Below are positions 1,342 to 43,511 of a stretch of DNA of 47,544 nt, one piece after another (the stretch's first letter is position 1; each line of letters starts with the position of its first letter). The stretch is from Eubacteriales bacterium (lineage in GTDB: Bacteria; Bacillota; Clostridia; Oscillospirales; CAG-272), in assembly GCA_045534875.1 (NCBI GenBank), contig JAZSKO010000049.1:1-47544 (forward strand), given 5' to 3'. The notes beneath the pieces are model-generated. The model worked only from the letters and a program-made list of their open reading frames with translations. It searched no databases and had not been told where the DNA came from. The translations under genes were made by a program, and so were the position numbers.

Positions 1342-2268
1342 TTACGGTTCCGATTGCTCCGGGGAAACAGGGGAATCCTCTGTGGCTTTCAGATTTCGAC
1401 GAAAATCGTTTGGAGTTACTCCGTTGGTCTTGCGAAAGCAGGTGGCAAAATACGTGTAGTTCTGAAATCCACATTCCAAGCTGATCTGGTGAATGCTCTT
1501 ATCGGTGTGCTTCAAAAGAAAGCGCGCCTGCTTCAAGCGGATCTCGTTGAGCTTGGTAATATAGTTCACACCAAATTCACGCATCACAAGGCGAGAGGCC
1601 TGTCGGGAGGAGAGCTGGATCGAATCGGCCAAGTCCTGCAGCTTGATGTTTTCCTTATAGCGCAGACGAAGGAAGCATTCCACGCGATCACGCCAATAGC
1701 CACTGTATTTCGGCTCAATGGCAGGGAAGACCTCGTCGCAGGGAACTTTGGAAAGACGAAGAATGTCGGTCAGCAAAAGGGTACAAAGCGATTGCAGGGA
1801 GCAGAAATATCCACTGCGACTCTCTTTCAATTCCAAAGCAATGTTTTGAAAGGTCTTGGCGAGGGTAAGGTCGGGATCGCGCACGATGCGGATCATGTTG
1901 AAGACCTCGATCAGGCGAGCATAGCTCTTTTTATGCTTGATGCTGGCATGCTCGCTTGGAGGCTTGACCGAAAAACGAAGACGGTAGATGGTAATATCGA
2001 GGGAAAGATCCTCGATGAGCTGATAGTGCCATTCTCCGGGGCGAACGAGGATCAGGTCTCCCGCTCCCAAAGTGAGCCCTTCGCCCTCGACCGTGTATTT
2101 TCCTTTGCCACGCAACACATATTGAAGCTCATAGCAGCCGTGATCGTGCGGATCGGCGAAGCAAAGCGTTCCCGTGGCGTAGATGCGGTCATTCACAAAA
2201 AAGAAAAGGCGCAAGGGACCAATGGAAATTGGAATTTCAAGGGAAGAATACAAATTGGTTTGTTCCAT
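1342..2268 (-). CDS. AraC-family transcriptional regulator (cupin-like sensor + double HTH)
   Basis: 308 aa. C-terminal AraC signature LQDLADSIQLSSRQASRLV...IHQISLECGFQNYTYFATCFRK. RBS AAAGGAG is upstream of the start. It is divergent from the propeller locus. Confidence 0.9.
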   Translation of the reverse strand: MEQTNLYSSLEIPISIGPLRLFFFVNDRIYATGTLCFADPHDHGCYELQYVLRGKGKYTVEGEGLTLGAGDLILVRPGEWHYQLIEDLSLDITIYRLRFSVKPPSEHASIKHKKSYARLIEVFNMIRIVRDPDLTLAKTFQNIALELKESRSGYFCSLQSLCTLLLTDILRLSKVPCDEVFPAIEPKYSGYWRDRVECFLRLRYKENIKLQDLADSIQLSSRQASRLVMREFGVNYITKLNEIRLKQARFLLKHTDKSIHQISLECGFQNYTYFATCFRKTNGVTPNDFRRNLKATEDSPVSPEQSEP

Positions 2269-2332
2269 GCGCAGTGCTCCTTTTGGGGTTTGATATAAGA
2301 AAATGAGAGGATGTTTTCATCCGTACAGTTTT

Positions 2333-2361
2333 ATTATACCCGTTCTTTTTTTAGAATGCAA
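2333..2361 (-). promoter_or_regulatory. sigma-A-type promoter for the AraC-family gene
   Basis: On the minus strand: TTGCAT (2361-2356), 17 nt, TATAAT (2338-2333), ~60 nt upstream of start 2268. Confidence 0.5.
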
Positions 2362-2433
2362 GTGGGTTTCCAAAAATAAAAGTAAATAATAAGACAACTT
2401 TCAACCCAATATGTCTCTTTATTTAATGGTTTC

Positions 2434-2567
2434 TGCGTTTTATCGCCAAAACGCGTTTTTTGAAGGAAGAAAGGGATCAACACCACGATCTCTGCTTTTT
2501 TGGAGGCAACAGAACGGAAATGGATACACGTATTTGAAGATTAATTTTTCAGACAAGTGCGTTTTAT
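2434..2567 (+). promoter_or_regulatory. Direct repeat TGCGTTTTAT x2 (2434-2443, 2558-2567) plus a GCGTTTT-containing palindrome AAAACGCGTTTT (~2448-2459); candidate AraC-type operator sites
   Basis: Exact 10-nt repeat read in the divergent intergenic region. The promoter-proximal copy ends 19 nt before the -35 of the + strand promoter. Confidence 0.3.
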
Positions 2568-2585
2568 AGAGGGCGGAAAACTTTA

Positions 2586-2614
2586 TTTACATTTGATTCT
2601 CAGAATGTTATAAT
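2586..2614 (+). promoter_or_regulatory. sigma-A-type promoter of the propeller locus
   Basis: TTTACA (2586-2591), 17 nt, TATAAT (2609-2614), with an extended -10 TGt. Confidence 0.6.
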
Positions 2615-2698
2615 AAGGTAGTTAGAGGCTTGTGCCGAAAAACAAACAAATAACATTCGTTTTCTTTGTTCAAAATGAACAAAAAAGGAGGGGTTACC

Positions 2699-3790
2699 AT
2701 GAAGCACGGAATTGTTGGAAGGATCACGGAAGGGAATTTCCGCTATCAGGGATGGCCGTCGGTCTGTCGGGATGAAAGGGGCGTTTTATACGCCGTTTGC
2801 TCGGGGCATCGGTTGGCGCACATCTGCCCGTTTGGAAAGAATCTGATGTACGTCAGCTATGATGACGGCGTTACGTGGTCCTGCCCGATCATTGTAAACG
2901 ATACCGTTCTGGATGACCGCGATGCGGGCATTCTGTCCTTGGGAGACGGAAAGATGCTTCTGTCTTGGTTTGATCTTCCAAAGAGTTATTTCTTGGATCA
3001 GGAGGAACGCCTTTGCAATGGCAGGACCTTCCGAGGAGAAAAGGGGCTGTTTCAGGGAATTCTCGATCAATGGAAGAACACGCCGGAGGAGGAATTGCAA
3101 TCCGGCTCGTTCATTCGGTTGTCGGATAACCACGGTCTGACGTGGAGTCCCGCCATTCGTGTACCCGTCACCGCTCCCCATGGGCCGAACCGCATGAAGA
3201 ACGGCGATCTCATCTATTTGGGCAAGTGCATGGATCGGGTATACAGCAACGCCGAGGGCATTGTTCTTTCTTTCAGCCATGACAATGGATTGACGTGGGG
3301 AGAGTGCGTCACACTTCCGTTCCCTGAGAGTGTTTCTCCACACTGGTGTCATGAGCCCCATATTGCGGAGCTGGCAGACGGCACACTGTTGGCGGCCACT
3401 CGCGTGCATGAAAATGGAACGGATCGCGGTGAAAACTTCACGGTTTACCTCTCGCGCTCCAAGGATGGAGGAAAAACATGGAGCGTAGCCGAGCCCACGG
3501 GCTGGTGCGGCTCGCCTCCTCATATCTACGTGCATTCCACAGGGGCGGTGATCATCACCTACGCGCGCAGAATGAATGAGTTTGGAACGCGTGGTCGCGT
3601 CAGCTTTGACAACGGAAAAACGTGGAGTCAGGAGATCATCCTCAGTAGCGGCCCCGATGGCGACCTCGGCTATCCCTGTACCACCGAATGCTCCGATAGT
3701 TCCTTGCTCACCGTTTACTATCAACGAGTTCCCGAGGATCGCGTGGATTCGATCCTGCAAACGACTTGGAATCTCTCGGAAGTGAAGTAA
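2699..3790 (+). CDS. BNR/Asp-box sialidase-superfamily beta-propeller, no signal peptide (cytoplasmic paralog 1)
   Basis: ATG 2699 is preceded by AAAGGAGGGG (2685-2694). The track start at 2666 is a TTG with no RBS. Five Asp-boxes: SYDDGVTW, SDNHGLTW, SHDNGLTW, SKDGGKTW, SFDNGKTW. FRYQGWPS lies near the N-terminus and GYPC near the C-terminus. Confidence 0.8.
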   Translation: MKHGIVGRITEGNFRYQGWPSVCRDERGVLYAVCSGHRLAHICPFGKNLMYVSYDDGVTWSCPIIVNDTVLDDRDAGILSLGDGKMLLSWFDLPKSYFLDQEERLCNGRTFRGEKGLFQGILDQWKNTPEEELQSGSFIRLSDNHGLTWSPAIRVPVTAPHGPNRMKNGDLIYLGKCMDRVYSNAEGIVLSFSHDNGLTWGECVTLPFPESVSPHWCHEPHIAELADGTLLAATRVHENGTDRGENFTVYLSRSKDGGKTWSVAEPTGWCGSPPHIYVHSTGAVIITYARRMNEFGTRGRVSFDNGKTWSQEIILSSGPDGDLGYPCTTECSDSSLLTVYYQRVPEDRVDSILQTTWNLSEVK

Positions 3791-3818
3791 AGAGAACACA
3801 ATGAAAGGAGAAATAAGA

Positions 3819-5102
3819 ATGAAGAAAAACAGAAAGCTGATTTTTCTGACAGCATTGCTTCTCTTGTCCATGCTGCTCTCGGCGTGTAACACACAGGGAG
3901 GCAGTACGGTCGGCACAACGGCTGAGCCGAGCGCCGAAGCCCCAACCACCACACAGCCGATCGAGGATGACTCTCCGAAGGTCGAGCTTCCCGCGGATAA
4001 AACCCTGACGCAGGGCATCGTGGGCGAGATCAAGGGAGGAGAGCGGAAGTATCAGGCATGGCCGTCGGTCTGCTCGGATGAGGATGGCGTTCTCTATGCG
4101 GTGGCCTCGGGCTATCGCGCAGGACACATCTGCCCCTTCGGCAAGGATGTTATGTATATCAGCCGAGACGGAGGACAGACGTGGTCCACCCCCTATCTCA
4201 TCAATGACACCGTGATGGACGACCGCGATTGTGGCATTCTGTATCTTGGCGAGGGCAAGATGCTGATCTCTTGGTTCCATAACGCGCCGGAGTACTATTA
4301 CAACTACTACGAAAAGAACCCCTCGCAACTTACCTCTCAGGTGCAAGCGATCTTGAATCAATGGAAGCAGCTTCCGGCGGAGGAGCAGAGAAACGGCGGA
4401 TCGTATGTGATGCTTTCCGAGGATTACGGCGTGACGTGGCAGGAGCCTGTCCGTGTACCGATCTCCGCGCCGCACGGCCCGACACTGCTCTCCGATGGTC
4501 GACTGCTCTACGCAGGCAATGAGCATTTTGCAACCGACGGTGGCGGATATTTGTCCGGCATCAAGGTCTACGAAAGCTCCGATAACGGCAAAACGTGGAC
4601 GGCATCCGGCTCGATCACCGCGCCGAGAGCAAACACCTTTGAGCCTCACGTCGCCGAGCTAGCGGATGGCTCGATCCTCTGCGCCATTCGCGCACATACG
4701 AATGGAAAGGATAGCGGAAAGGATCTGACGATCTATCTCTCGAAATCCACAAACGGAGGGAAATCCTGGACGGTAGCAAAGGCCACGGGCTGGTGTGGCT
4801 CGCCGCCTCACATTCTGGTGCATTCGTCGGGGGCTGTGATCCTGACCTACGGCTTTCGGGGTGTTGATGGCGATAATGCCTACGGCGTCAGAGCGCGCGT
4901 CAGCTACGATAACGGAAGCACGTGGAGCGATGAGATCATTCTCAGCAACAATTCCCCCTCGGGCGACTGTGGCTATCCTTGCTCCGCCGAGCTGCCCAAT
5001 GGCGCGATCGTAACGGTTTATTATCAAGCGATCGCAAAGGGCGAGCCCTGCTCGATCCTTTACACCCGTTGGTGGCACACCGAGGAGGCAAAGCAGGGAT
5101 GA
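3819..5102 (+). CDS. BNR/Asp-box sialidase-superfamily lipoprotein (paralog 2)
   Basis: ATG 3819 follows AAAGGAG. Lipoprotein signal MKKNRKLIFLTALLLLSMLLSAC. Asp-boxes SRDGGQTW, SEDYGVTW, SSDNGKTW, SYDNGSTW. Collinear with paralog 1 (RKYQAWPSVCSDEDGVLYAV..., GYPC). Confidence 0.8.
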   Translation: MKKNRKLIFLTALLLLSMLLSACNTQGGSTVGTTAEPSAEAPTTTQPIEDDSPKVELPADKTLTQGIVGEIKGGERKYQAWPSVCSDEDGVLYAVASGYRAGHICPFGKDVMYISRDGGQTWSTPYLINDTVMDDRDCGILYLGEGKMLISWFHNAPEYYYNYYEKNPSQLTSQVQAILNQWKQLPAEEQRNGGSYVMLSEDYGVTWQEPVRVPISAPHGPTLLSDGRLLYAGNEHFATDGGGYLSGIKVYESSDNGKTWTASGSITAPRANTFEPHVAELADGSILCAIRAHTNGKDSGKDLTIYLSKSTNGGKSWTVAKATGWCGSPPHILVHSSGAVILTYGFRGVDGDNAYGVRARVSYDNGSTWSDEIILSNNSPSGDCGYPCSAELPNGAIVTVYYQAIAKGEPCSILYTRWWHTEEAKQG

Positions 5103-6532
5103 ACCCACAAAAAATCGTAGTGCTTTTGTTACTCATTGCACAACTGCTCCTGCTTTGTTGCGGAAGCGTTGGGGCAGAGGAGGCAGACAAGCTGGAAAAT
5201 CAATTTGAGCCGCAACAGGTAGCCATCCCGGATGTAAACAATGCGTTTAACGAGACGCTTGCCTTTTCGGCAAACTACACGACCTCAAAGCTGATCGAGG
5301 TACAAAAGGGGGATGTGATTACCTTTGGCCCTGTTTTGGTAACCTCGTCAAATTGGTTTTTAGCTCCCTATCAGGCAAACGGATCAAAGGCTTGCGACGC
5401 CGTTTCCTTCTCCCATTGTACGCGCGTAGGGATGCAATACGATGGAAGGGATCTTACCTATTTCTTATCATGGACAGTTCCCGACAATGTTCGGTATATT
5501 CGAATGGCGGCACCGGCAACACGAACGGGAGAGATCTTGCTTACCGTCAATCAGCCCTATACCCTTGCAGAATACAAGGCTTACATCGCACAGGCAAGGA
5601 CTCCGAAAAATCCCGATAGCGTTCTCAACGGAAAAAAGGCTCTTTTCGTGGGAGATTCGCTGGTTTTCGGCTCGTATGATGCCGCACCGCCCGCAACGGG
5701 ACGCTCATGGTGGGGCAGGATCGCGATCAACACAGGCTTGCAGGCGGTTGGAGCAGGCGTGGGAGGCGCAACGGTGGCGAAATGCGCGGATGCCGCAGGC
5801 TGGATCGCGGATCAGATCACCGATCAAGCCTCGGAGAATTACGATATCGTTGTGATCGAGGGCGGTTGTAACGATGCGCGCCGCTCGCTCCCCATCGGGA
5901 ATATGTTACATACCGAGGAGAAAGCGGAGCTTCTGGAAAACACGAACACCTTTGCAGGAGGATTGCAATGGATCATCCATCAGGCAAAAAAGAATTGGCC
6001 AAACGCCATCCTCTTTTACACCTCCACCATCCATCAGGATGCTCACACAACCGGTAGCATCAAGCAAAGTCAGGACTATTACGATATAGCCGAAGCTCTC
6101 TGCGAGAGATACGGAGTGGTTTACATCGACCTCTATAACAACACGGAATTAAACAGCAAGCTGCAAAGCTCCACCCCCAAGTATCTCCCTGATACGCTTC
6201 ACCCAACCTCAGAGGGCTATGACATCATCGCTCCGTATGTGCAAGCTCCCATCGAGGCCACTCTGCAAGCGCTCCTGCCGCCTTCGGACAAAGAAACGGA
6301 AGACGGCGGAGATGCCACCCCTTCAACGGGAGACACCACCCAAGCTGAGCCGCAGGAAAGCGGAACGGTGGAGGGAAGCTCCCACCCAACGCAGACAAGT
6401 CCGTCAAGCGGATGCGCCTCCACTCTGTCGGGATCCCTCGCGGCGATCCTGATGGTAGCGGCGGCCGTGGCTTGTGTGCAAAAAAAGGGAAGGCGGGCGA
6501 AATGCTCCCGATGCCTTCCACCCAACTCTTGA
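5099..6532 (+). CDS. Secreted SGNH/GDSL-family esterase with an N-terminal beta-sandwich-like domain and a C-terminal GCAS-TM-basic tail
   Basis: ATG 5099 overlaps the upstream stop (ATGA). Signal peptide MNPQKIVVLLLLIAQLLLLCCGSVGA. SGNH blocks FVGDSLVFGS (I), GGCNDA (III) and DTLHPT (V). The Thr/Pro/Ser-rich linker is followed by SSGCASTLSGSLAAILMVAAAVACVQKKGRRAK. Confidence 0.8.
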   Translation: MNPQKIVVLLLLIAQLLLLCCGSVGAEEADKLENQFEPQQVAIPDVNNAFNETLAFSANYTTSKLIEVQKGDVITFGPVLVTSSNWFLAPYQANGSKACDAVSFSHCTRVGMQYDGRDLTYFLSWTVPDNVRYIRMAAPATRTGEILLTVNQPYTLAEYKAYIAQARTPKNPDSVLNGKKALFVGDSLVFGSYDAAPPATGRSWWGRIAINTGLQAVGAGVGGATVAKCADAAGWIADQITDQASENYDIVVIEGGCNDARRSLPIGNMLHTEEKAELLENTNTFAGGLQWIIHQAKKNWPNAILFYTSTIHQDAHTTGSIKQSQDYYDIAEALCERYGVVYIDLYNNTELNSKLQSSTPKYLPDTLHPTSEGYDIIAPYVQAPIEATLQALLPPSDKETEDGGDATPSTGDTTQAEPQESGTVEGSSHPTQTSPSSGCASTLSGSLAAILMVAAAVACVQKKGRRAKCSRCLPPNS

Positions 6533-6583
6533 TTCATCTTATATAAGGTGAAAATAAAAATTTTTTCAAAGGAGACGAACCCC

Positions 6584-9163
6584 ATGAAAAAACTTCTCAG
6601 TTTGTTCCTCACCCTCGCCATGCTGTTTGGGCTGGCGGCAGTGCCGGTGTTCGCAACCGAATCGACCGTGATCGGTTACGCCCCCGCCATTTCCGAAGCA
6701 GCCAAAGCGGCGAACGCCGAAAACGTAGCGGCAGCCACCGAGATCACGGCTACCACTGCGTACGACGCCAGCGTCACCTACTGGAAGATCTCGACAGCCG
6801 AAGGCTTTTTGAGATTTGCTCAGCTGTGTGACGGTACCAACAAGTTTGCAGGTAAGACGGTTTACCTGACGGCAAACATCGACCTGAGCTTTGCAGGTGT
6901 CTTCACCCCCGTGGCTCCCTCCGGCTCGGAGCGCTTCTCCGGAACCTTCGACGGTCAGGGCTACGCGATCGACAACGTTGAGATCGTTTCTTCCGCTTCT
7001 ATGGTAAATGGCTCGATCTTTGGCCTTATTGAAAACGGAACGATCAAGAACCTTGTGGTCGGAAGCGGCGTGCTGGTCCATGCCAAGGATCGTAGCCACG
7101 GCACAAACAACGCGGCTGTCTGCTCGCAGGCAATTGGAACCAGAAACTATTTTACCAACATCTACTCGGCCGCTACCGTGATCGGTGTTTCGAATATGAC
7201 GGCAGGAATCGTTGCATTGGATAACGCCGGTACGGCCAACACCCTCTCGAACGTCACCAACGCAGGAAACGTTTGCGGTAACTACGGCAGAACCGGCGGT
7301 CTCATCGGTCGCGCAAGCTATCCTACCGTGATCGAGAACTGCCGCAACATTGGTAGCGTAACGGGCGGTATCAGAAATGACGCCAGCAACGGTGTTGGCG
7401 GTTTCATCGGCGGAACCAACGGAAATAACAATCAAACCATCACGATCACCAACTGCATCAACAACGGCTCTGTGATCGCTGTTGGGGCTGCTACGGCAGG
7501 CAAGAACATCAAGATGGCAGGATTTGTGGGTACCAAGTCGGGAAGTCCCGGCGAAACGGTTGTCTTTACCAACTGCTACAACTACGGCACCGTGACCCCG
7601 GATGCAAATACCACCGCCTACGGTCTTGCCGACACCACGAACACGGCAAACACCTTTACCAACAGCGAGGACAGAGCAGGTCAGACCGACGCAACCCTCG
7701 CAACTGCCTTCACCTACCTCGACGCAGGCTATCAGGCAGACATCGTAAAGAAGGTTGATCTCACCGGAATTGCGAACATCCTCAACTACTCCGCGTCTGC
7801 AACCGACACCAAGTACATGATCGACACCCCCGCAGGCCTTGTGAAGCTCGCCGAGATCGTCAACGGCGGCGACACCCTCTCGGGCAAGACCATCTACCTC
7901 GGTGCTGACATCAACATGGTCAACGTGACCGACTTCACTCCCATCGGAAACACCGCTGATCTGGTATTCTCGGGTACCTTTGACGGTCAGGGACACGTGA
8001 TCGACAATCTCGTCGTAAAGACCACCGGCGCATACGTTGGTCTGTTCGGCAAGATCAAGAACGCAAGTGTTTGCAATGTTGTGATTGGTGCGAATTCCTC
8101 CTTCTCCGCCACCTCCTCTGTGGCAAACCATAGCTTTGGTAGCATTGCAGGTCTGGCCCATGGCGTCAGCACGATCTACAACGTCTATTCCGCGGCTGCT
8201 GTGATCGAGAACAAGTCCACCGTTGGCTACAACGGCGGTATCCTTGGCTCGAATTACATGGCAGGCACCGGCTCGCACGTGATCGTTCGCAACGCAACCT
8301 ATGCAAATGCAACCGATGGCATTTCCTCCACCCGTCGCGCAGGCGGTATTATGGGATATGTTTACACGAATGAGAATAATTATTGCACCAACGGTGTTTA
8401 CATCTTCAACTGCCACAACACAGGAAAGGTTTCCTGCACCAATGCAACCGGGGACAGCGGCATGAATGCGGCAGGCATTCTGGGTCATGCACAACACGGA
8501 ACGGCTCACATCAGCGGTTGTGTGAACAGCGGCGAGACGAGCGCACCCTACAAAGCATCCATTCTGGCTGTTTCCAACACCAGCAACACCTACACCGCTA
8601 TTTCCAACTGCGTCAGCTACACCGCCGATCCCATCTGCAAGGAGAATGCGATCGGTAAGGTCGCCGCTTCGGGATGCACCGTCTCCGCCGAGACCGCACC
8701 TGTTGCAACTGCGCCTGTTGCAAGCTATCCCGCCGCGATGATCCACGGCTATCAGAAGTCCACTGCAACCTACACCAATAAGGATAAGGAGTGCATCTCG
8801 ATCCGTCTGGTTGGCTCGATCGACTCGGACGCCTACAAGAAGGTCGGCTTCAAGATCACCGTGACCACGGACAACAACACCTACGACTTTGATTATTCCG
8901 ACACCACCGTGTATTCCGCGCTTACCGCCACCACGGATGGAAGCATCGGAACGGTCGCCATCAGCTCGATCCGCGATAGCGCATCCGCTTTCTATGCTGT
9001 TACCATCAAGAACCTGTCCACCTCGCTTGGAACCATTGATGTTAAGGTAACGCCTTATGCTATCGCAATGGATGGAAGCCCCGTGGAAGGCACCGCCGCT
9101 ACCTTCTTGGTGGATTGCAGTGCGGCCGCTTCCTCGGGCAATGTTGCCGTAAACGAGGGTTAG
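6584..9163 (+). CDS. Secreted repetitive beta-helix surface protein 1 (two FxGTFDGQGxxIDN modules with GLUG-like G-G-[LFI]-[IVM]-G repeats); ends at an in-frame TAG
   Basis: ATG 6584 lies 8 nt after AAAGGAGA. Signal peptide MKKLLSLFLTLAMLFGLAAVPVFA. Motifs FSGTFDGQGYAIDNV and FSGTFDGQGHVIDNL. Repeats RTGGLIGRA, GVGGFIGGT, MAGFVGT, RAGGIMGY, AAGILGH. C-terminal beta-sandwich-like domain. Confidence 0.8.
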   Translation: MKKLLSLFLTLAMLFGLAAVPVFATESTVIGYAPAISEAAKAANAENVAAATEITATTAYDASVTYWKISTAEGFLRFAQLCDGTNKFAGKTVYLTANIDLSFAGVFTPVAPSGSERFSGTFDGQGYAIDNVEIVSSASMVNGSIFGLIENGTIKNLVVGSGVLVHAKDRSHGTNNAAVCSQAIGTRNYFTNIYSAATVIGVSNMTAGIVALDNAGTANTLSNVTNAGNVCGNYGRTGGLIGRASYPTVIENCRNIGSVTGGIRNDASNGVGGFIGGTNGNNNQTITITNCINNGSVIAVGAATAGKNIKMAGFVGTKSGSPGETVVFTNCYNYGTVTPDANTTAYGLADTTNTANTFTNSEDRAGQTDATLATAFTYLDAGYQADIVKKVDLTGIANILNYSASATDTKYMIDTPAGLVKLAEIVNGGDTLSGKTIYLGADINMVNVTDFTPIGNTADLVFSGTFDGQGHVIDNLVVKTTGAYVGLFGKIKNASVCNVVIGANSSFSATSSVANHSFGSIAGLAHGVSTIYNVYSAAAVIENKSTVGYNGGILGSNYMAGTGSHVIVRNATYANATDGISSTRRAGGIMGYVYTNENNYCTNGVYIFNCHNTGKVSCTNATGDSGMNAAGILGHAQHGTAHISGCVNSGETSAPYKASILAVSNTSNTYTAISNCVSYTADPICKENAIGKVAASGCTVSAETAPVATAPVASYPAAMIHGYQKSTATYTNKDKECISIRLVGSIDSDAYKKVGFKITVTTDNNTYDFDYSDTTVYSALTATTDGSIGTVAISSIRDSASAFYAVTIKNLSTSLGTIDVKVTPYAIAMDGSPVEGTAATFLVDCSAAASSGNVAVNEG

Positions 9164-9235
9164 ATCGTTGCAGGAGGGGGAACCTCCTACGCAGCTTGGC
9201 CCAGCATTTGTGTAGATGACGATGGCGTCTTCTAC

Positions 9236-10192
9236 ATGGTCGCATCGGGCAACCGTACAGGGCATATGTCCTATGACGGAGAGAATGTTTTATACACCAG
9301 TCGGGACGGAGGAAAGACTTGGAGCGCGCAGTCGGTCATCAACGCGCAAGCGGGGATCGACTTTCGCGATGCAGGCATTCTCTATCTTGGTAACGATCAA
9401 TTTCTTTTGAACTATTTTGTAGCCTATGAATCGGGTGGCACACGTGTCACGGCAAATTCCTACGTTCGGCAGGGAACCCTTTCCAACGGCGTGATCACAT
9501 GGGGCGACGCGATCCAAGTACCGCTTCAATCCCCCCACGGCCCCACACAGCTTTCCAACGGAACGCTGTTCTGGGTGGGTGACGCCTACTACGATCCCTC
9601 CGAGGGCTACGATAAGAACAATGACGGGAAGAACGACTACACCCGTGGCAACGACTATGCTATGAAAAGCACCGACGGCGGAAAGACATGGAGCTTCGTG
9701 GCGCATATGCCCAACATTCCCAATTATGGGGCGCAGGGCTGTGAGTTCCACACCACCCAGCTTTCCTCCGGCAGACTGGTCACCACGATCCGTTTGAGCG
9801 TGAATTCCCAGCTTCAAACCTACGTTTCCACCTCCGACGATCAGGGCGTCACATGGACAACCCCCGTCCTTGTGACCAAGGGCGCACCTGCTCATCTTTT
9901 GGCGCATCCCTCGGGGATTCTCGTTATGACCTACGGCTTCCGCGGCGACACGGCTACGGGCGAAACCAAGTACGGTATTCGCGCACGCCTGTCCTATGAC
10001 GGCGGTGACACGTGGGGGGAGGAGATCCTGCTGGACAGCACAGCCGCCACGGATGATTGCGGCTATCCCTGCTCGGTCGAGGCGAAGGACGGAAGTCTTT
10101 ACACGGTCTACTACAAGACAAACGCATCGAGCTCTGCTCCCGGTATTTGGGGCGTTTCATGGACGCTTCCCACGCAGATGCCCACGGAGTAA
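9236..10192 (+). CDS. BNR/Asp-box sialidase-superfamily propeller (paralog 3); homology extends upstream to the TAG at 9161, so it is probably the C-terminal domain of the 6584 ORF (split gene, pseudogene or read-through)
   Basis: Same frame as 6584..9163. Positions 9164-9235 translate to IVAGGGTSYAAWPSICVDDDGVFY, matching the N-terminal strand of paralogs 1 and 2. There is no in-frame ATG/GTG/TTG before 9236 and no signal peptide. Asp-boxes SRDGGKTW, STDGGKTW, SYDGGDTW; GYPC is present. Confidence 0.6.
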   Translation: MVASGNRTGHMSYDGENVLYTSRDGGKTWSAQSVINAQAGIDFRDAGILYLGNDQFLLNYFVAYESGGTRVTANSYVRQGTLSNGVITWGDAIQVPLQSPHGPTQLSNGTLFWVGDAYYDPSEGYDKNNDGKNDYTRGNDYAMKSTDGGKTWSFVAHMPNIPNYGAQGCEFHTTQLSSGRLVTTIRLSVNSQLQTYVSTSDDQGVTWTTPVLVTKGAPAHLLAHPSGILVMTYGFRGDTATGETKYGIRARLSYDGGDTWGEEILLDSTAATDDCGYPCSVEAKDGSLYTVYYKTNASSSAPGIWGVSWTLPTQMPTE

Positions 10193-10213
10193 TCAATCAA
10201 AAAAGGAGTTTTT

Positions 10214-11662
10214 ATGAAAAAACTATGCAAAAAGGGCATGAGCCTGCTCCTGGCTCTTTTCCTGCTTTGCGGTGCATTTGCTCTCGTTTCCTGTGACGGA
10301 AACAAGGGAAGCACCCAAGGAGGAACAACGCCCAATTCCACCCCATCGGGAGAAGCCTCTCTGATGGATCAACACGCGGCCGCTAAGGATTTTGATGGAC
10401 GTGATTTCAATATCCTGACCGTCAGCAACTATAACGAGCTCCACTACTTCGCAACAGACGATGCAACTGCCACCGGGATCGAGGCCTCCTGCTATGCGAG
10501 GACTCTCTACTTGGAGGAGCGGTACAATGTTGAGTTGAAGGTGATCGAGGTGGAGAAGCCTCACGAGTCGCTGATGGAAATGGCGGGAACCGATACACAG
10601 GCGTATGACCTGATGTTCCCCCATCCGAAGGTCGGAATTGCCTCGTTGGCAACCGCCGGCTATATGGTGGATATGCTCACGCTCAACGAGCTGGACTTCT
10701 CGCAGGATTGGTGGGTCAACGGAATGGTAGAGGGCTATAAGATCAACGGAGGCCTCTACTATACCTCCTCGGATGCCGCCATCGTTTCCCAAGGCCTTGC
10801 GGGCTTGATCTACAACAAGGACCTCTACAATACCTATGGCTTTGAGGAAGACTTGTATCAGGTCGTCTACGATAAGGAATGGACGCAGGAGAAAATGCTG
10901 GAGATCATGGAGGTGATCTCGTCAAGCACCAGCGGTTCCACCGGAACCTATGGCTTTATTCATCACAATTCGCACACCTACGGAATGGCAGTTGGTATGG
11001 GCTATCAGATCCTGAAAAGGGATGCCGATGGCACCATGACCTTCGCGCCTACCAAGGAGAGCACCGTCAAGATCGCGGAGGCGGTCTATGATATCTTCTA
11101 TGAGCACGAGAAAACCGTGTTTGCAGGCTCTGCCGCAACCAACGCCGTTCTCGGCTCCTCGGAGATCTGGCTGTTGTTCTCGGGAGGAAAGGGATTGTTC
11201 ATGAGCTTCGACATTGGACAGACCTACTCTCTCTTGCGTGACCTTCGCTTTGACGTGGGCTATCTGCCGTTCCCGATGCTCGAAAACGAGGTGCAGAAGG
11301 ATTACAAGATGTTCTGCGGATCGGGACTTTACGGGATCCCCACCACGGCCGTGAACGCAGAGGACAGCGCGCTGATCTTCGACGCCTACTCGATTTACAG
11401 CATGGAGCATGTCAAGCCTGCCTTCTTTGAGATCATCATTGGAGGACGGTTGTCCGAGAATCCTGCGGATTTCGAAATGCTGAACTATCTGCATATGAGA
11501 AAGAGCTTTGACCTTGGCTTCACCTTGGATGAGGGCAATATCTTCTATGCCTTGATCCACACGGCGGCCGTGGCGCAAAAGAACCCGCAATCGGTTGGCC
11601 GTCTGCTCACGCAGTATTCCAGCACGGCGCGCAATCTTGAAAAGCTCGCAAACGGTACGTAA
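10214..11662 (+). CDS. Extracellular solute-binding-protein-like lipoprotein (family-1-like), with no cognate permease or ATPase nearby
   Basis: RBS AAAAGGAG. Lipobox LVSC in MKKLCKKGMSLLLALFLLCGAFALVSC, followed by a Gly/Ser/Thr linker. At ~480 aa, its size and mixed alpha/beta composition resemble Clostridial sugar SBPs (DFDGRDFNILT...). The family call rests on gestalt only. Confidence 0.5.
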   Translation: MKKLCKKGMSLLLALFLLCGAFALVSCDGNKGSTQGGTTPNSTPSGEASLMDQHAAAKDFDGRDFNILTVSNYNELHYFATDDATATGIEASCYARTLYLEERYNVELKVIEVEKPHESLMEMAGTDTQAYDLMFPHPKVGIASLATAGYMVDMLTLNELDFSQDWWVNGMVEGYKINGGLYYTSSDAAIVSQGLAGLIYNKDLYNTYGFEEDLYQVVYDKEWTQEKMLEIMEVISSSTSGSTGTYGFIHHNSHTYGMAVGMGYQILKRDADGTMTFAPTKESTVKIAEAVYDIFYEHEKTVFAGSAATNAVLGSSEIWLLFSGGKGLFMSFDIGQTYSLLRDLRFDVGYLPFPMLENEVQKDYKMFCGSGLYGIPTTAVNAEDSALIFDAYSIYSMEHVKPAFFEIIIGGRLSENPADFEMLNYLHMRKSFDLGFTLDEGNIFYALIHTAAVAQKNPQSVGRLLTQYSSTARNLEKLANGT

Positions 11663-11694
11663 TGATGAACACGTATATTTTTAAGGAGAATAAC

Positions 11695-14250
11695 ATGAAA
11701 AAGATTCTTGCTACCATTTTGGCATTGATTCTGGTTCTGTCCACCGCTTCGATCGGCGTATTCGCAGATGACACGGTGATCGGCTATTCCTCCGCGCGTG
11801 TGGATGCCGCAGACCTGAGTCTGGTTGCCGACATTTTGGATTATGACGCAGCGAATCCGGCTGCGGCCTACAAGATCACGCAGGCGGCAGGACTGGTAAA
11901 GCTTGCCGAGATCGTAAACGGTAAGGACGATGTCGCAGGTGTGACGCTGGCGGATGTTACCATCTATCTGGCGGGAGACATCAACATGGGACTCGTCAGC
12001 GCCTACGCCCCCATCGGCGTCGATAAGGCGGCCGCGCACTTCGAGGGAACGTTTGACGGTCAAGGTCACGTGATCGACAATCTCAAGCTCACCTCCACCC
12101 AGCAAAACGCGGGTCTGTTCGGAAGCATTCAGAATGCGACCATCAAGAACCTTGTGATCGGCTCGGGCTGTCGCTTTGTTTCCAACTACTCGGGCGAGGA
12201 CCGCTTTGCGGCCATCGCAGGACAGGTGGACGGCGCTTGCCTGATCGACAACTGCTACAACATGGCAAACGTCGTCGGTAACAAGCTGATCGGCGGCTTT
12301 GCAGGACGTGTGGACAGCAATGGCAATGAGGGCAATGTCCTCACCATCAAGAACTCCACCAATGCAGGCGACATCAGCGGCTTGCGCCGTACGGGCGGCT
12401 TCGTTGGCGTTGGCGGCGCGATCGCTATGGACAATTGCCGTAACACGGGCGACGTGTATACCATGGATTGCACCGACGGCGCAGGTGTGTATAATCCTCA
12501 GCACTGCGCGGGCGGTCTGGTTGGTCTGCTTTGGGGTCAGTCCCTCACCGTGACCAACTGCATCAACAACGGAGCGATCAAGGCGGCAGGAAGTGCCGTT
12601 GGAGGATTGCTTGGTGTTGGTGCATATTCGGTTTCCGGAGGTAGCATTGCATCCTCCATCAACTACGGAAGCATTACCATGGAATTCGACAACCTTGGTA
12701 GCTATGAGGGCCCGATCGTGGGACACGATGCAACCGGAAAGATCAGTGTCGATTCCTCCGCAACCGATCGCACGGGTCAGACCGACGATACGTTGGAGGG
12801 CGACATCGAGACGATCACCCCCAACTTTATCCATACCGAAACCACCGATCCCACGGGCGATCCCAACGCAGGCCCGATCCTCAACCCCTACGATGACGAC
12901 GTAACCGATACGGTCGGAATCGTTGGCTTCTCGTCGCAAAGAGTGGAGAAGGTGGATCTGACCGAGATCCCCGCGCTTTCCACTTGGACGGCCGAGAGCG
13001 AGGAGACCGCATATAAGATCCTCACCGCCGATGAGCTTCAGCTCCTTGCCGACATCGTCAACGATGGAAACTCGATGGAGGGGATCACCATTTATCAGGG
13101 TGCTGAATTGGACATGGTGAACATCATTGGTATGCCTCCCATCGGATGGAACGACGATAAGCCCTTCTCGGGAACCTATGACGGACAGGGCTACATCATC
13201 GACAACTACCAGCCCATGGTAACCAACGATATCATCACCGTCGAGGGAAGTGCCGAGTACGTTCGCTACGGTCTGTTCGGAACGCTTGACGGCGCAACGG
13301 TGAAGAACGTGGTGCTGGGTGAGAACTGTGTCATCGCAAACAATACCAGACGCGGACATATCTGCGCAGGTGGTATCGCGGGCATGGTGATCGGCACGGC
13401 CACCATCGACAACTGCTATGTCATGGCGATCCTCATTACGGGCTTGCAGCACGTTGGCGGTATTGTGGGTAACATTGCAGGCATGAACGATGCCGCGATC
13501 ACCGACCGCGTCATCATCCGTAACTGCACCGTAACCAGCGAGATCGTGGCAGAGTACACGGTGGGCGGTATGGTTGGAACCAAGGGAGCTCCCGGATCGC
13601 TGATCGTGAAGAACTGCCGCACCACGAATGTGGTCGAGAACTCCTTGGCACAGGATGCGAACCGCACCGGTGACAAGGTCGCGGCAGGTGTGGTTGGCGT
13701 GATTTCGGCCGGTATCGTGGCGATCACCAATGTGACCAACACGGCCGAGATCCGATCCAAGACCACGATCGCTGGCGTCTTTGGACACGCGCAGAACACG
13801 GCCGAGGTCGTGTTGAAGGATGTTACTCTCTATGGTTCGATGACCGAGGAGGACGAGACCGTTGTGTATGGTCAGATCTATGCCACGAAGGGCGTTCGCG
13901 CCAGCGTCGTTGGCGAGGATGAGGTTGAATTGAAGTTCGGAGAAGAGGATGAGACCTTGGATCTGGAGGAGATCGTTCTGGGTGGCGGAAGCTCTGGAAA
14001 TGAGCCCGGCGGCACCCCCGACACGCCCGATACCCCCGGTACGCCTGACACCCCCGACGATGGAACGGGTAGCACCGTTACCGATCCTTCTACCACGACC
14101 ACGGATAAACCCAACACGACCACTCCTGCAACCCAAACGCCCGCTGATGGCGGCACGGAGGCAGGATGTGCTTCTGCCGTTGGTGGAATGCTGGTGATCC
14201 TGCTTGCAGGCGGCGCCGCACTCACCGTTTGCAAAAGAAAGCAAGATTGA
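11695..14250 (+). CDS. Secreted repetitive beta-helix surface protein 2 (two FxGT[FY]DGQGxxIDN modules) with a Thr/Pro stalk and a C-terminal GCAS-TM-basic tail
   Basis: ATG 11695 lies 6 nt after AAGGAG. Signal peptide MKKILATILALILVLSTASIGVFA. Motifs FEGTFDGQGHVIDNL and FSGTYDGQGYIIDNY. Repeats IGGFAGRV, RTGGFVGVG, CAGGLVGLL, AVGGLLGVG, HVGGIVGNI, TVGGMVGTK. The tail is TEAGCASAVGGMLVILLAGGAALTVCKRKQD. Confidence 0.8.
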   Translation: MKKILATILALILVLSTASIGVFADDTVIGYSSARVDAADLSLVADILDYDAANPAAAYKITQAAGLVKLAEIVNGKDDVAGVTLADVTIYLAGDINMGLVSAYAPIGVDKAAAHFEGTFDGQGHVIDNLKLTSTQQNAGLFGSIQNATIKNLVIGSGCRFVSNYSGEDRFAAIAGQVDGACLIDNCYNMANVVGNKLIGGFAGRVDSNGNEGNVLTIKNSTNAGDISGLRRTGGFVGVGGAIAMDNCRNTGDVYTMDCTDGAGVYNPQHCAGGLVGLLWGQSLTVTNCINNGAIKAAGSAVGGLLGVGAYSVSGGSIASSINYGSITMEFDNLGSYEGPIVGHDATGKISVDSSATDRTGQTDDTLEGDIETITPNFIHTETTDPTGDPNAGPILNPYDDDVTDTVGIVGFSSQRVEKVDLTEIPALSTWTAESEETAYKILTADELQLLADIVNDGNSMEGITIYQGAELDMVNIIGMPPIGWNDDKPFSGTYDGQGYIIDNYQPMVTNDIITVEGSAEYVRYGLFGTLDGATVKNVVLGENCVIANNTRRGHICAGGIAGMVIGTATIDNCYVMAILITGLQHVGGIVGNIAGMNDAAITDRVIIRNCTVTSEIVAEYTVGGMVGTKGAPGSLIVKNCRTTNVVENSLAQDANRTGDKVAAGVVGVISAGIVAITNVTNTAEIRSKTTIAGVFGHAQNTAEVVLKDVTLYGSMTEEDETVVYGQIYATKGVRASVVGEDEVELKFGEEDETLDLEEIVLGGGSSGNEPGGTPDTPDTPGTPDTPDDGTGSTVTDPSTTTTDKPNTTTPATQTPADGGTEAGCASAVGGMLVILLAGGAALTVCKRKQD
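14011..14061 (+). repeat. 9-nt-period coding microrepeat ([GD]-T-P x5) in the stalk of surface protein 2
   Basis: ggcaccccc gacacgccc gataccccc ggtacgcct gacaccccc encodes GTPDTPDTPGTPDTPD. Confidence 0.7.
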
Positions 14251-14290
14251 GCGGCTTACACCTTATTACGAAGAAAGGAAGAACGCAACA

Positions 14291-14422
14291 ATGAAAAAGA
14301 CATATGTAAGACCTGAGACCGAAATCACTGTGATCTCGTTTGAGGATATTCTCACGACCTCCAAGCTGATCTATGCCGACGACGGCGAGGGCGGATACAT
14401 CGACGGAGTTATCATCCTGTAA
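14291..14422 (+). CDS. Candidate 43-aa small ORF (MKKTYVRPETEITVISFEDILTTSKLIYADDGEGGYIDGVIIL)
   Basis: ATG 14291 lies ~12 nt after AGAAAGGAAG. It sits 40 nt after the stop of surface protein 2 and is followed by a GC-rich hairpin. No family was recognised. Confidence 0.35.
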   Translation: MKKTYVRPETEITVISFEDILTTSKLIYADDGEGGYIDGVIIL

Positions 14423-14436
14423 TATCCACATAAAGA

Positions 14437-14479
14437 CCTCCCATCCCAATGATGGGGTGGGAGGAACCAATCCTTTTTT
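14437..14479 (+). terminator. GC-rich hairpin with a distal T-run (possible terminator or attenuator between the small ORF and the GH36-like gene)
   Basis: CCTCCCATCCC (14437-14447) pairs with GGGGTGGGAGG (14454-14464) with one G-T pair. TTTTTT at 14474-14479 lies 9 nt after the stem, which is suboptimal for an intrinsic terminator. Confidence 0.4.
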
Positions 14480-14514
14480 ATGTATTCGCCATGCTTTGGC
14501 GATTTGGAGAAACC

Positions 14515-16506
14515 ATGCGATTTTCGGTTATACAAAACCAAGAGACTTTGGAGATTTATCACAACGGCATTCCTCTTATGAAGGATATTCGCTTGGAGAT
14601 TGCCACGCAAAGGGAAGGGGCCTGTTCGCTATCTCCCGTTGCGCTTACCTGCGAGGGCGAGAGAGTGGTGGTTTCCTATTGCAAGGAGGACCACGAAAAG
14701 GGGCCTATGGGCAATAACACGGCCTCTGGATTGATCGGGGCGGTTCGGATCACCCGAGCCGAGCTTACCCTGCAAGAGGTGGGAGATGTCCTGCAATGGA
14801 GCATTTCCATGGATACGGTGAAGGAGCATTCCCGAGTGAATTACTTTTTCGCCTCCAACGATGCCATTCGCTTTCACTTCCGAATGGCAAGGGACGTGGA
14901 GGAGAACTACATCACCGATGCCGCCACCAAGCTGTGGTTCCAAACCCCCTCCTTTTCCAGAGATCTGACCGATCTCCCCTCTCAAACACAGGACATTCAC
15001 CTGCGGTCGGGGAAGGAGCATATCCATCTGCTTCCCTTGGTCAGCGATGACCTCCGAACCGAGTTCAAGGGAGATGCGTTGGTGGCCTCGGTCGGATGTG
15101 GAGGCGTTTCCGGCGTCGAAGGGCCGATTCTGACCATAGCGGTTGGAAATGACCCGTACCATGTCATCCGCGAGAATTTCCGCGCGGGAAGGGAAAGCGG
15201 CGTGATCCGTGTCCCTCTGCGCGAGGAAAGGGCCATGCCGTGGGACGTGTTCGGTGGCTTTGGATGGTGTACGTGGGATGCCTTCTATCAGGATGTGACG
15301 GCAGAAAAGATCTATCAAAAGCTGGATGAGCTGCGAGAAAAGGGAATCCGCCCAAGATATTTGTTGATCGATGACGGCTGGTCGGTCACAAAGAATTCCA
15401 AGCTGTGGGAGCTTTGTGAGGATCGGGAAAAATTCCCCGAAGGACTTGCCGCTTGTATCAAGCGGATCAAGGACGAATACGGCGTTCTATACGTTGGTGT
15501 TTGGCAGGCCTTCGACGGTTATTGGTATGGTGTCCATCCCGATAGTCCCGTGGCAAAGGAGCTTGCCGATTGCCTGACGCTTTGTCCCAACGGTCTGTTG
15601 ATCCCGTCCCCCGATGCGGAAAAGAACTTCCAATTTTGGGATCGGTGGCATTCCTATCTTGCCTCTTGCGGTGTGGATTTTGTGAAGGTCGACAACCAAG
15701 CCACCTATTCCTACTACATCGACGAGGTCTGCAAGAACGTGCAAGGCGTTCGCGCGGCGCACGAGGGGCTGGAACGCTCGGTATTCAAGCATTTCAATGG
15801 CAGATTGATCAACTGCATGGGCATGGGGATCTACGATCTCTTAACCCGTCCTCAATCGGCCTTGAATCGGAATTCCAACGATTTTCTGCCCAAGCTCGAT
15901 AACGGCTTTGCCATCCACATCAACACCAACGCCTACAATGCCCCCGTTCACAGTCAGGTCATGTATTGTGACTACGATATGTGGTGGAGTCGACACGAAT
16001 CCGCAAAGGCACAGAGCGTTCTGCGCGCGATCAGCGGCGGACCGATCTATTCCAGCGACCCTCTCGACGCCACCGATCCAACCTATATCCTTCCTCTTTA
16101 TAAGAAGGATGGCTCTCTCCCTCGGTTGGATACGCAGGGAATGCCGACCTACGATTGCTTCTACACCGACTGTGAGAAGGCGGCTCTGCCGCTCAAGCTC
16201 TTCAATCGGAGCGGAGAAAATTTGACGGTGGCGGCCTTTGGTCTGACCGCAGGAGGCGCAAACGGTGCTTTGCGGCTGTCGGACATTCCGGGCGCCGATG
16301 GAGCATACCTTGCTTGTGAATATTTTTCGGGCAGGCAGCAATACATGGATGCCAACACAGTCATCCCCTTGGAGCTGGAAAAATTGGATGTTCAGCTTTG
16401 GAATCTGTATCCTGTACGGGATGGAGTGGCCTATGTGGGCGATCCAACGATCTATATGGGCTGTGCCTCGGATGCCTTCACGAAAACAGAGGTAGAAATC
16501 GAGTGA
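14515..16506 (+). CDS. GH36-clan / raffinose-synthase (Sip1)-like alpha-galactosidase-type enzyme, cytoplasmic
   Basis: ATG 14515 follows GGAGA. Motifs FGWCTWDAFY, YLLIDDGW, FVKVDNQ and INCMGM are typical of the raffinose-synthase/GH36 family. No signal peptide. Confidence 0.7.
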   Translation: MRFSVIQNQETLEIYHNGIPLMKDIRLEIATQREGACSLSPVALTCEGERVVVSYCKEDHEKGPMGNNTASGLIGAVRITRAELTLQEVGDVLQWSISMDTVKEHSRVNYFFASNDAIRFHFRMARDVEENYITDAATKLWFQTPSFSRDLTDLPSQTQDIHLRSGKEHIHLLPLVSDDLRTEFKGDALVASVGCGGVSGVEGPILTIAVGNDPYHVIRENFRAGRESGVIRVPLREERAMPWDVFGGFGWCTWDAFYQDVTAEKIYQKLDELREKGIRPRYLLIDDGWSVTKNSKLWELCEDREKFPEGLAACIKRIKDEYGVLYVGVWQAFDGYWYGVHPDSPVAKELADCLTLCPNGLLIPSPDAEKNFQFWDRWHSYLASCGVDFVKVDNQATYSYYIDEVCKNVQGVRAAHEGLERSVFKHFNGRLINCMGMGIYDLLTRPQSALNRNSNDFLPKLDNGFAIHINTNAYNAPVHSQVMYCDYDMWWSRHESAKAQSVLRAISGGPIYSSDPLDATDPTYILPLYKKDGSLPRLDTQGMPTYDCFYTDCEKAALPLKLFNRSGENLTVAAFGLTAGGANGALRLSDIPGADGAYLACEYFSGRQQYMDANTVIPLELEKLDVQLWNLYPVRDGVAYVGDPTIYMGCASDAFTKTEVEIE

Positions 16507-22217: not shown

Positions 22218-22236
22218 GAAATAAGGAACGGAAACG

Positions 22237-24048: not shown

Positions 24049-24107
24049 CCCCTGTTGCCCACACCATTCCAATCGAACCCATTAGAACCTCAAAAGGAGA
24101 TTTTATT

Positions 24108-43434: not shown

Positions 43435-43511
43435 GGAGGCATAGCTCAGTTGGTTAGAGTGCATGCTTGACATGCATGAGGTCGTTGGTTCGATTCCAAC
43501 TGTCTCCACCA
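43435..43511 (+). tRNA. tRNA-Val (anticodon GAC), CCA encoded
   Basis: Manual cloverleaf. Acceptor GGAGGCA/TGTCTCC, D arm GCTC/GAGT, anticodon stem CATGC/GCATG with loop TTGACAT, T arm GTTGG-TTCGATT-CCAAC, discriminator A plus CCA. 77 nt. Confidence 0.9.

Follow-up and report, generated by a model that had tools for sequence, protein, structure and literature searches.

A candidate cysteine-type C-terminal sorting domain on secreted proteins of uncultured gut Clostridia

Background

C-terminal sorting tags decide which proteins bacteria display on their surface. In the generic sorting domain of Haft, a short signature motif is followed by a helix and then by a cluster of basic residues at the very C-terminus; otherwise unrelated proteins carry it, in several copies per genome. 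Four tripartite signals of this kind that contain a Cys are in the literature, namely, MYXO-, JDVT-, Synerg-, and CGP-CTERM, along with proteases of the CPBP family, and none of them is from Firmicutes (doi 10.1101/2023.06.07.544157). The class has so far been found in Myxococcota, Pseudomonadota, Synergistota, and archaea of the Thermococcales. It was tied to CPBP proteases in 2023 (doi 10.1101/2023.06.07.544157) and this was experimentally confirmed in 2025 (PMC11980579). In Myxococcus, the CPBP/Rce1-like protease MrtX cleaves MYXO-CTERM, the Cys residues are needed, and Lgt is the enzyme that has been proposed to carry out lipidation (PMC11980579). Here we report on a stretch of 47,544 nucleotides from an Eubacteriales bacterium (GCA_045534875.1, contig JAZSKO010000049.1), the whole of which is called the window, and on two secreted proteins encoded in it, an SGNH/GDSL esterase and a GLUG-type beta-helix protein (GLUG protein 2), that end in the same kind of tail. 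A first-pass annotation of the sequence had put this tail forward as a candidate non-LPXTG sorting or anchoring signal. Our analysis supports that proposal, since the tail is neither restricted to the two proteins nor accounted for by a known sorting-domain model. On balance, we favor the view that the two tails belong to a C-terminal sorting/anchoring domain that has not been catalogued before and is restricted to one lineage, uncultured gut Clostridia, and for this domain we propose processing. That a conserved sorting/anchor domain family exists is very probable.

Results and discussion

Two window proteins with a common tail

Both genes are on the plus strand. The esterase gene (5099-6532; PF13472, E=1.6e-21) was given the start annotated for P0001, which is identical to the window esterase, and the gene for GLUG protein 2 (11695-14250) the start annotated for P0033, its open reading frame (ORF) being open from 11662. 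In the Pfam and NCBIfam scan the latter showed weak similarity to repeat regions of the ZmpA/ZmpD metalloproteases. As had been described, both proteins begin with a predicted Sec signal peptide, MNPQKIVVLLLLIAQLLLLCCGSVGA in the esterase (5099-5176) and MKKILATILALILVLSTASIGVFA in GLUG protein 2 (11695-11766), and both carry a low-complexity stalk ahead of the tail, rich in P/S/T/E/D in the former (6278-6409) and in G/P/T/D in the latter (13981-14163); signal peptides and stalks were judged by eye from the sequence. The esterase C-terminus, translated from 6404-6529, is SSGCASTLSGSLAAILMVAAAVACVQKKGRRAKCSRCLPPNS. It consists of the signature G-C-A-S (6410-6421; in the family the G and C are invariant and the S is found in 91%), a hydrophobic transmembrane segment supported by the sequence and by a match to a hidden Markov model (HMM) (6416-6481), and the basic cluster KKGRRAK (6482-6502), which is predicted to be cytoplasmic. 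GLUG protein 2, translated from 14158-14250, ends EAGCASAVGGMLVILLAGGAALTVCKRKQD followed by the stop codon, with G-C-A-S at 14164-14175, the hydrophobic transmembrane segment, likewise matched by the HMM, at 14170-14232, and the basic-then-acidic end KRKQD plus stop at 14233-14247, to be compared with the family consensus KKKED-stop. Thus the translations agree with the shared layout that had been reported, G-C-A-S, a helix of about 20 residues, and a basic cluster. That the passengers are unrelated also held, a GDSL/SGNH domain in one and a GLUG-type beta-helix in the other, and the two fell into separate BLAST clusters. GLUG beta-helix protein 1 (6548-9163, plus strand), a paralog with 32% identity, provides a contrast within the window, as it has no tail; neither has P0050, its ortholog in the syntenic metagenome-assembled genome (MAG).

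The two window tails by themselves are just about 30-36% identical, and it could be argued that two low-complexity hydrophobic C-termini look alike by chance. This was decided by an HMM built solely from 139 tails that belong to other organisms and by the profile search described below. The HMM scored the esterase at 35.8 bits (E=1e-10) and GLUG protein 2 at 27.7 bits (E=3e-8) as against 5.4 bits (E 0.3) for the next best of 347 ORF segments in the window, and the profile search found the same C-terminal domain in 348 clusters. The tail is, in addition, kept in homologs of both proteins. These results refute chance similarity, which we regard as practically negligible. When all six frames of the window were scanned with a regular expression for a C-terminus with a Cys, an uncharged stretch of 15 or more residues, and a K/R tail, only these two ORFs were found. 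Since the tail-coding DNAs of the two genes are only about 50% identical, the likeness does not stem from a recent duplication.

Conservation of the tail in homologs

Esterase homologs P0002 to P0010 and P0027, with 31-51% identity, all end with G-C-x-[S/A/G] followed by a helix and then a K/R cluster. GLUG homologs P0034 to P0054, P0062, P0066, and P0068, with 29-60% identity, end with [K/E]KGC[G/A/K]S..GG..KKKED, and the tail is also kept in P0035, the ortholog of GLUG protein 2 in MAG GCA_965342355.1. The motif is therefore not confined to the two window proteins, as it is kept in homologs of both down to about 30% identity as well as in the 348 cluster representatives. Distant esterase homologs have instead either a plain anchor without Cys, of the form GLSTGAIIGIAAG...FALYWFV.KKKK, or another Cys-rich C-terminal module. 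Distant GLUG homologs carry domains of the type IX secretion system, SLH domains, or dockerin domains at the C-terminus, and P0106 carries a genuine NPNTG sortase signal. Because recognized surface modules stand in place of the tail on GLUG homologs, the tail is an exchangeable C-terminal module that is positionally equivalent to them.

The Cys-rich module that replaces the GC tail was seen in the distant SGNH esterase homologs P0014, P0017, P0022, P0024 to P0026, and P0028 to P0031. It reads ...HVCxxVSGWKAFWNSIxNFFRRLFGQPELCxCGExIxKK; it is amphipathic, its lysines come last, and it had no match among the things with which it was compared. The window esterase itself has an atypical extension of 9 residues, CSRCLPPNS (6503-6529, plus strand), past its basic cluster. 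The HMM match ends before this extension, and the closest esterase homologs, P0002 and P0003, do not have it. The extension adds two Cys residues, the family norm being a stop directly after KKK(E/D), and comparable extensions containing Cys were seen in P0174 and P0027. In the esterase it may have arisen through loss of a stop codon or may be a variant of the cytoplasmic end.

Size and anatomy of the tail family

Profile A2, with 35 positions built from 30 tails, was used for an exhaustive search of 1.84 billion cluster representatives, and 348 of these matched at E<=1e-3. In all of the best 150 of the 348 the match ends at the C-terminus or a few residues from it, the one apparent exception being P0174, whose end is extended, and 140 of 140 new sequences among the matches listed have Gly-Cys at the expected position. 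A word-index homolog search with the tail alignment, using an index that favors short proteins, gave only 18 short fragments. An N-terminus resembling a signal peptide was seen in 70 of the 81 tail-bearing representatives that are 200 residues or longer. Together with the two window proteins these representatives formed 30 BLAST clusters, only one of which is GLUG-like. The other passengers include SGNH, BspA-type leucine-rich repeats (LRR), CBM9, F5/8 type C, Laminin_G_3, metallophosphoesterase, He_PIG, LTD, and PT linkers. Thus the passengers belong to at least 30 unrelated families.

The anatomy of the tail was counted over 203 unique tails with positions given relative to the Cys. Position 0 is C in 100% and position -1 is G in 99%, while position -3 is K in 48% and position -2 is K, G, or S. 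On the other side of the Cys, position +1 is G in 57%, K in 14%, and A in 12%, position +2 is S in 91%, position +4 is V/I/L in 93%, positions +5 to +7 are Gly-rich, and positions +15 to +18 are Ala/Gly-rich. The first K/R comes at +20 to +25, the Cys is followed by 25-29 residues, the ratio of K to R is 594:93, and the last residue is acidic in 84%. The family core is [K/E]-K-G-C-x-S-x-[V/I/L]-x-G-G, then the helix, and then KKKED-stop. Outside of the conserved positions the helix is variable, helices being otherwise 15-40% identical; it essentially lacks charged residues and has a Pro in a few tails (L008, L013, L068, and L069). A doubled GCxGC occurs in a few tails (L002, L042, and L070) and Asn-Cys replaces Gly-Cys in one variant (L048). 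These counts bear on two elements of the first-pass annotation. G-C-A-S is found in both window tails, but as the family motif it has to be widened to G-C-x-S. A second Cys toward the helix end, which had been listed as a common element, is present in only 61 of the 203 tails (30%) and is dropped. In sum, the tail is a conserved, modular, and strictly C-terminal domain with many copies per genome, an invariant Gly-Cys, and a fixed distance from it to the Lys cluster.

Distribution among genomes

A DNA pattern, consisting of G-C-x-S, 18-25 codons, and KKKED-stop with the final two codons fixed as GAT TGA, was searched for in 185,579 species genomes. It matched 71 stretches, of which at least 53 proved to be true tails on translation, and the pattern is estimated to sample only a few percent of the possible tails. 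True tails were found only in MAGs labelled Clostridia, Eubacteriales, Oscillospiraceae, Ruminococcaceae, Lachnospiraceae, Clostridium, Ruminococcus, or Candidatus Scatosoma, and these MAGs come from ruminant, other animal, and human gut. Six in-frame matches in other taxa have stop codons or charged residues within the predicted helix and the remaining non-Clostridial stretches have no in-frame match; all of these were dismissed as chance. Thus the tail family is restricted to one lineage, the gut Clostridia. Up to four or five matches were found per genome, with five tails on four contigs in CALAXC01 and four in JAZRIF01. Tandem arrays of three to five tail-bearing paralogs were found in 8-kb loci (L048, L058, L040, L025, and L065). 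The paralogs in these arrays are about 550 residues each and end with ...GCGSVVGFGA...SFKKKED.

Comparison with catalogued sorting-domain models

Forty-two tails (12 plus the 30 of A2) were run against NCBIfam release 20.0 and Pfam at E<=10, where the filters of HMMER may hide matches weaker than about E=0.1. No described sorting-domain model reached its cutoff through its signature motif. LPXTG is absent, as had been claimed, and neither LPXTG nor NPXTG occurs in either window tail or in any of the 203 family tails. The strongest similarities are to sortase signals. Rumino_NPXTG (NF033846) matched weakly in 17 of 30 tails with a best E of 0.00032, and when eight tails were scanned singly its best score was 17.5 bits, short of the cutoff of 23.5, over model positions 5-30, which come after NPXT. 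TIGR01167 (LPXTG_anchor) matched weakly in 13 of 30, the best score of 16.6 bits against a cutoff of 15.9 covering only model positions 14-33, and PF00746 matched weakly in 13 of 30 with a best E of 0.0012. The window tails gave 13.6 bits or no match with the LPXTG models. The matches to LPXTG/NPXTG models cover the helix and the basic part, not the motif.

These matches raise the question whether a divergent sortase acts on the tail, which would then descend from NPXTG/LPXTG signals in related Clostridia, K-K-G-C|G having replaced N-P-x-T|G, and whether the protein would be linked to peptidoglycan. Like LPXTG/NPXTG signals, the tail is found in a Gram-positive host, follows a stalk, and has a helix of similar length and a K-rich tail with an acidic end. 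The alignment with NF033846 places the Cys at the Thr of NPXTG and the next residue, Gly in 57%, at the Gly of the model, the TIGR01167 and PF00746 matches are of the same kind, and P0106 with its real NPNTG tail shows that the two signals are interchangeable inside the GLUG protein family. On the other hand, the pentapeptide is replaced by Gly-Cys and there is neither Pro nor Thr in the motif. The NF033846 scores stay below cutoff, and the sole LPXTG_anchor score above cutoff aligns with the helix and tail only. The residue at +1 is K, A, S, Q, F, or R in 43% of the tails, which does not fit a strict P1' Gly, and no sortase with a TLxTC motif was found near tail genes. We therefore consider a divergent sortase improbable and treat it as a minor rival.

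The other models scored still less. MYXO-CTERM (TIGR03382/TIGR03901) was found in 2 of 30 tails at E>2 (8.6 bits, the cutoff being 15.85) and in 1 of 12 at E=0.078, and it did not match the window tails. Synerg-CTERM (TIGR04564) was found in 1 of 12 tails at E=0.0098 and in 0 of 30 in A2, JDVT-CTERM (NF033191) as single matches only at E=0.037 to 3.7, PEP-CTERM in 2 of 30 at E=0.087, and TIGR03867 (MprA protease, GlyGly-CTERM form) in 1 of 30 at E=0.0029. Firmicu-CTERM (TIGR04145), PGF-CTERM, and the bare GlyGly-CTERM model had no match in the 42 tails. Since a dedicated model would score well above the values observed, the tail domain appears to be uncatalogued, and our literature search found no description of a Clostridial C-terminal signal of the Cys type. 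Two other candidates were set aside. The SPSSG that precedes the Cys in the window esterase recalls the SPXTG sortase motif of the C. difficile type and is absent from the closest homologs P0002 and P0003. The reading of G-C-[GA]-S as a mirrored lipobox found no support, since among the N-terminal lipoproteins encoded on these contigs the preference is for Ala at -1 (14 of 22) and Gly/Thr/Pro at +2, with Ser at +2 in only 1 of 22.

Likeness to known Cys-type signals

The layout of the tail fits the generic tripartite sorting domain and, judged by sequence, the tail resembles the Cys-type tripartite signals most, yet it falls outside the membership of every existing model. The closest of these is MYXO-CTERM (TIGR03382 is named GC_trans_RRR), which has an invariant Cys, usually after Gly, a charge-free helix, and a basic cytoplasmic cluster; the Clostridial tail has the same layout, with G-C invariant, a nearly charge-free helix, and the first basic residue at +20 to +25. 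In both, a disordered linker lies ahead of the tag, many unrelated secreted passengers carry it per genome (dozens in MYXO-CTERM), a doubled GCxGC is found, occasional here and frequent in MYXO-CTERM, and no gene for a sorting enzyme is adjacent to the substrates. They differ in that the Clostridial host is a monoderm spore-former without an outer membrane or a type II secretion system (T2SS) step, that the Clostridial tail is Lys-rich with an acidic end whereas MYXO-CTERM is Arg-rich, and that only the former has the conserved Ser(+2), V/I/L(+4), and GG(+6/+7). Synerg-, JDVT-, and CGP-CTERM, which are predicted substrates of CPBP-family proteases, share with the Clostridial tail the invariant Cys at the start of the helix, the basic tail, and the restriction to a lineage. 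In Synerg-CTERM, however, a Ser/Gly cluster ends in the Cys without a spacer and the Leu-rich helix has an invariant Pro, while the Clostridial tail has no conserved Pro after the Cys. JDVT-CTERM has a near-invariant Asp-Pro nine residues after the Cys where the Clostridial tail has A/V/I/L at +9/+10, and CGP-CTERM, from archaeal Thermococcales, has an invariant Gly-Pro after the Cys where the Clostridial tail has Gly in 57% at +1 and Ser in 91% at +2, with Pro unreported there.

Two further systems with a modified Cys are informative. The bacterial lipobox, L-[ASTVI]-[GAS]-C, which is used by Lgt and LspA, also has an invariant Cys after a small residue at the outer membrane face and a single helix; in the Clostridial tail the arrangement is the mirror image, in that the Cys comes first and the C-terminal helix follows it, and at -3/-2, where the lipobox has Leu and a small residue, K, E, G, or S predominate. 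The CAAX box with Rce1 is the mechanistic template of the Cys-type class, with a Cys near the C-terminus and lipidation before endoproteolysis by a glutamic intramembrane protease. It differs in being a cytosolic C-terminus of four residues, whereas the Clostridial Cys is predicted to be extracytoplasmic and is followed by a helix and tail of 25-29 residues.

Proposed function and the case for a plain anchor

By the positive-inside rule, the C-terminal helix is predicted to stop transfer in an N-out/C-in orientation, which would place the Cys at the outer face of the membrane. By analogy with MYXO-CTERM, we infer that the Cys may be modified and the helix removed by an unlinked intramembrane protease. 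In the sequence of events that we propose, the protein would be exported by Sec through its N-terminal signal peptide until the C-terminal helix halts transfer, which would leave the Lys cluster in the cytoplasm and Gly-Cys at the outer membrane face, and the long stalk would enable the passenger to extend across the wall. A housekeeping protease that acts within the membrane, encoded at another site and CPBP/Rce1-like in the known systems, would then cut off the helix, and the passenger would remain lipid-anchored by its new C-terminus. Whether the tail is processed at or near the Cys we regard as evenly balanced, and that the protease would be of the CPBP class as rather doubtful. In its full form the proposal is of an undescribed housekeeping sorting pathway in gut Clostridia, the first Cys-type C-terminal system in monoderm, spore-forming bacteria, in which many surface enzymes and adhesins of each genome would leave the cell by Sec and be held by the Gly-Cys/helix/KKKED tag, the Cys lipidated or otherwise thio-linked, the helix clipped, and the surface proteome anchored by C-terminal lipids without sortase or T2SS. 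In that form it is offered tentatively.

The main rival is that the tail is a plain, unprocessed stop-transfer anchor, a homologous module shuffled within one Clostridial lineage, whose Gly-Cys is kept for a reason other than sorting, such as the capping or packing of the helix, a reversible S-acylation that entails no cleavage, or a contact made with a partner protein. The anchor without Cys on other esterase homologs, described above, speaks for this because it indicates that a simple anchor suffices for that enzyme family, and the strongest database similarities extend only over what is generic in LPXTG-type anchors, their helix and basic part. It also agrees with the outcome of the search for a processing enzyme, which yielded none in the vicinity of about 60 tail genes. 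That genes like those of sortases, exosortases, and rhombosortases are missing from the window had been stated earlier and stands, and no rhomboid or CPBP gene was found there either, 23 ORFs having been scanned with Pfam or NCBIfam and the other six large ones identified by reading their translations (AddA, AddB, a response regulator, a histidine kinase, glucose-6-phosphate isomerase, and a third BNR lipoprotein at 24045-25943).

The same search outside the window weighs against processing, as do several further points. There was no CPBP, rhomboid, sortase, or exosortase among 35 neighbors with at least four transmembrane segments at about 55 tail loci, nor were these four classes found in four 20-kb tail neighborhoods. 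A search for the motifs TLxTC, of sortases, and EExxxR near tail genes gave no sorting enzyme, and a gene for a CPBP protease, the family to which the myxosortases MrtX, MrtC, and MrtP belong, was found neither in the window nor in about 600 kb of tail neighborhoods. Housekeeping sorting enzymes are usually unlinked to their substrates and therefore the absence of an enzyme near the tails is weak evidence. The residues around the tail Cys are unlike those of the N-terminal lipoboxes on the same contigs, so that canonical Lgt recognition is not implied. Diderm Cys-type systems pass their substrates to the T2SS, which has no counterpart in a monoderm, and the basic cluster is Lys-rich and not Arg-rich (594 K to 93 R). 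The profile used for retrieval itself contains G-C and the enrichment of G-C is thus partly circular, despite which a tail without GC would still have scored within the listed range. Finally, the modification, the cleavage, and the enzyme class are all inferred by analogy.

What the plain anchor does not explain is that Gly-Cys is kept in about 100% and Ser(+2) in 91% of the tails, with fixed spacing, in helices that are only 15-40% identical, which is unexpected for a mere hydrophobic anchor. Moreover, every described tripartite tail with an invariant Cys has been tied to a processing protease, by experiment or by comparative genomics. We take the unprocessed anchor to be a serious possibility of lesser probability and keep to the reading of the tail as a sorting/anchoring domain with proposed processing.

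Genes for YidC/Oxa1 homologs (PF02096) were seen 1-4 kb from a tail gene in L002 (3009-4307), L027 (5839-7074), L032 (863-2647), and L067 (2363-3556). From their putative starts they appear unusually long for a Firmicute, 398-595 residues. Since the four loci are mutually syntenic, with YidC proteins 42-77% identical, they were counted as one observation, and the adjacency is probably coincidental.

The tag ends hundreds of surface proteins of uncultured Clostridia from the gut of herbivores and humans, among them glycan-degrading enzymes, BspA-like LRR proteins, and GLUG beta-helix proteins. If it is a distinct Cys-type tag, it would extend the class to monoderm Firmicutes. It would then also provide an annotation model for many surface proteins now called hypothetical and mark which enzymes are cell-bound and which are released, and it would offer a second system, free of an outer membrane, in which to study Cys modification and the protease that removes the helix.

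Locus context and other features of the window

Both tailed proteins lie inside a probable glycan-foraging locus (1342-16506). It encodes an AraC regulator, three BNR_2 sialidase-like proteins, one of which is a lipoprotein, the SGNH esterase, the two GLUG proteins, an enzyme like raffinose synthase/GH36, and a lipoprotein without a Pfam match that we read as a solute-binding protein. The locus is syntenic with L001 (930-14815) of MAG GCA_965342355.1, where the esterase is absent. The window also encodes GPR, SpoIIP, and AddAB, and the host is therefore a spore-former. Upstream of the tailed GLUG protein P0040, L075 has five unannotated proteins and a gene with weak similarity to Peptidase_S24/S26, which is signal peptidase-like (3061-7897, minus strand); this operon may resemble SipW-type secretion or fiber operons.

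Elsewhere in the window, three tandem paralogous lipoproteins of about 580-630 residues are encoded at 20475-25943. BNR_2 was found by Pfam in the first two, which are the ones that the scan covered, and the second and third are almost the same as each other in their N-terminal halves. At the contig end (85-1223) lies a transposase of the IS3 family (rve, HTH_21; orfA and orfB), in a region with a G+C content of 0.435 against about 0.55. A tRNA-Val (GAC) gene at 43435-43511 is overrun by a long ORF listed from 43467, and because this ORF crosses the tRNA, the GH43/GH130-like gene that it represents probably starts further downstream.

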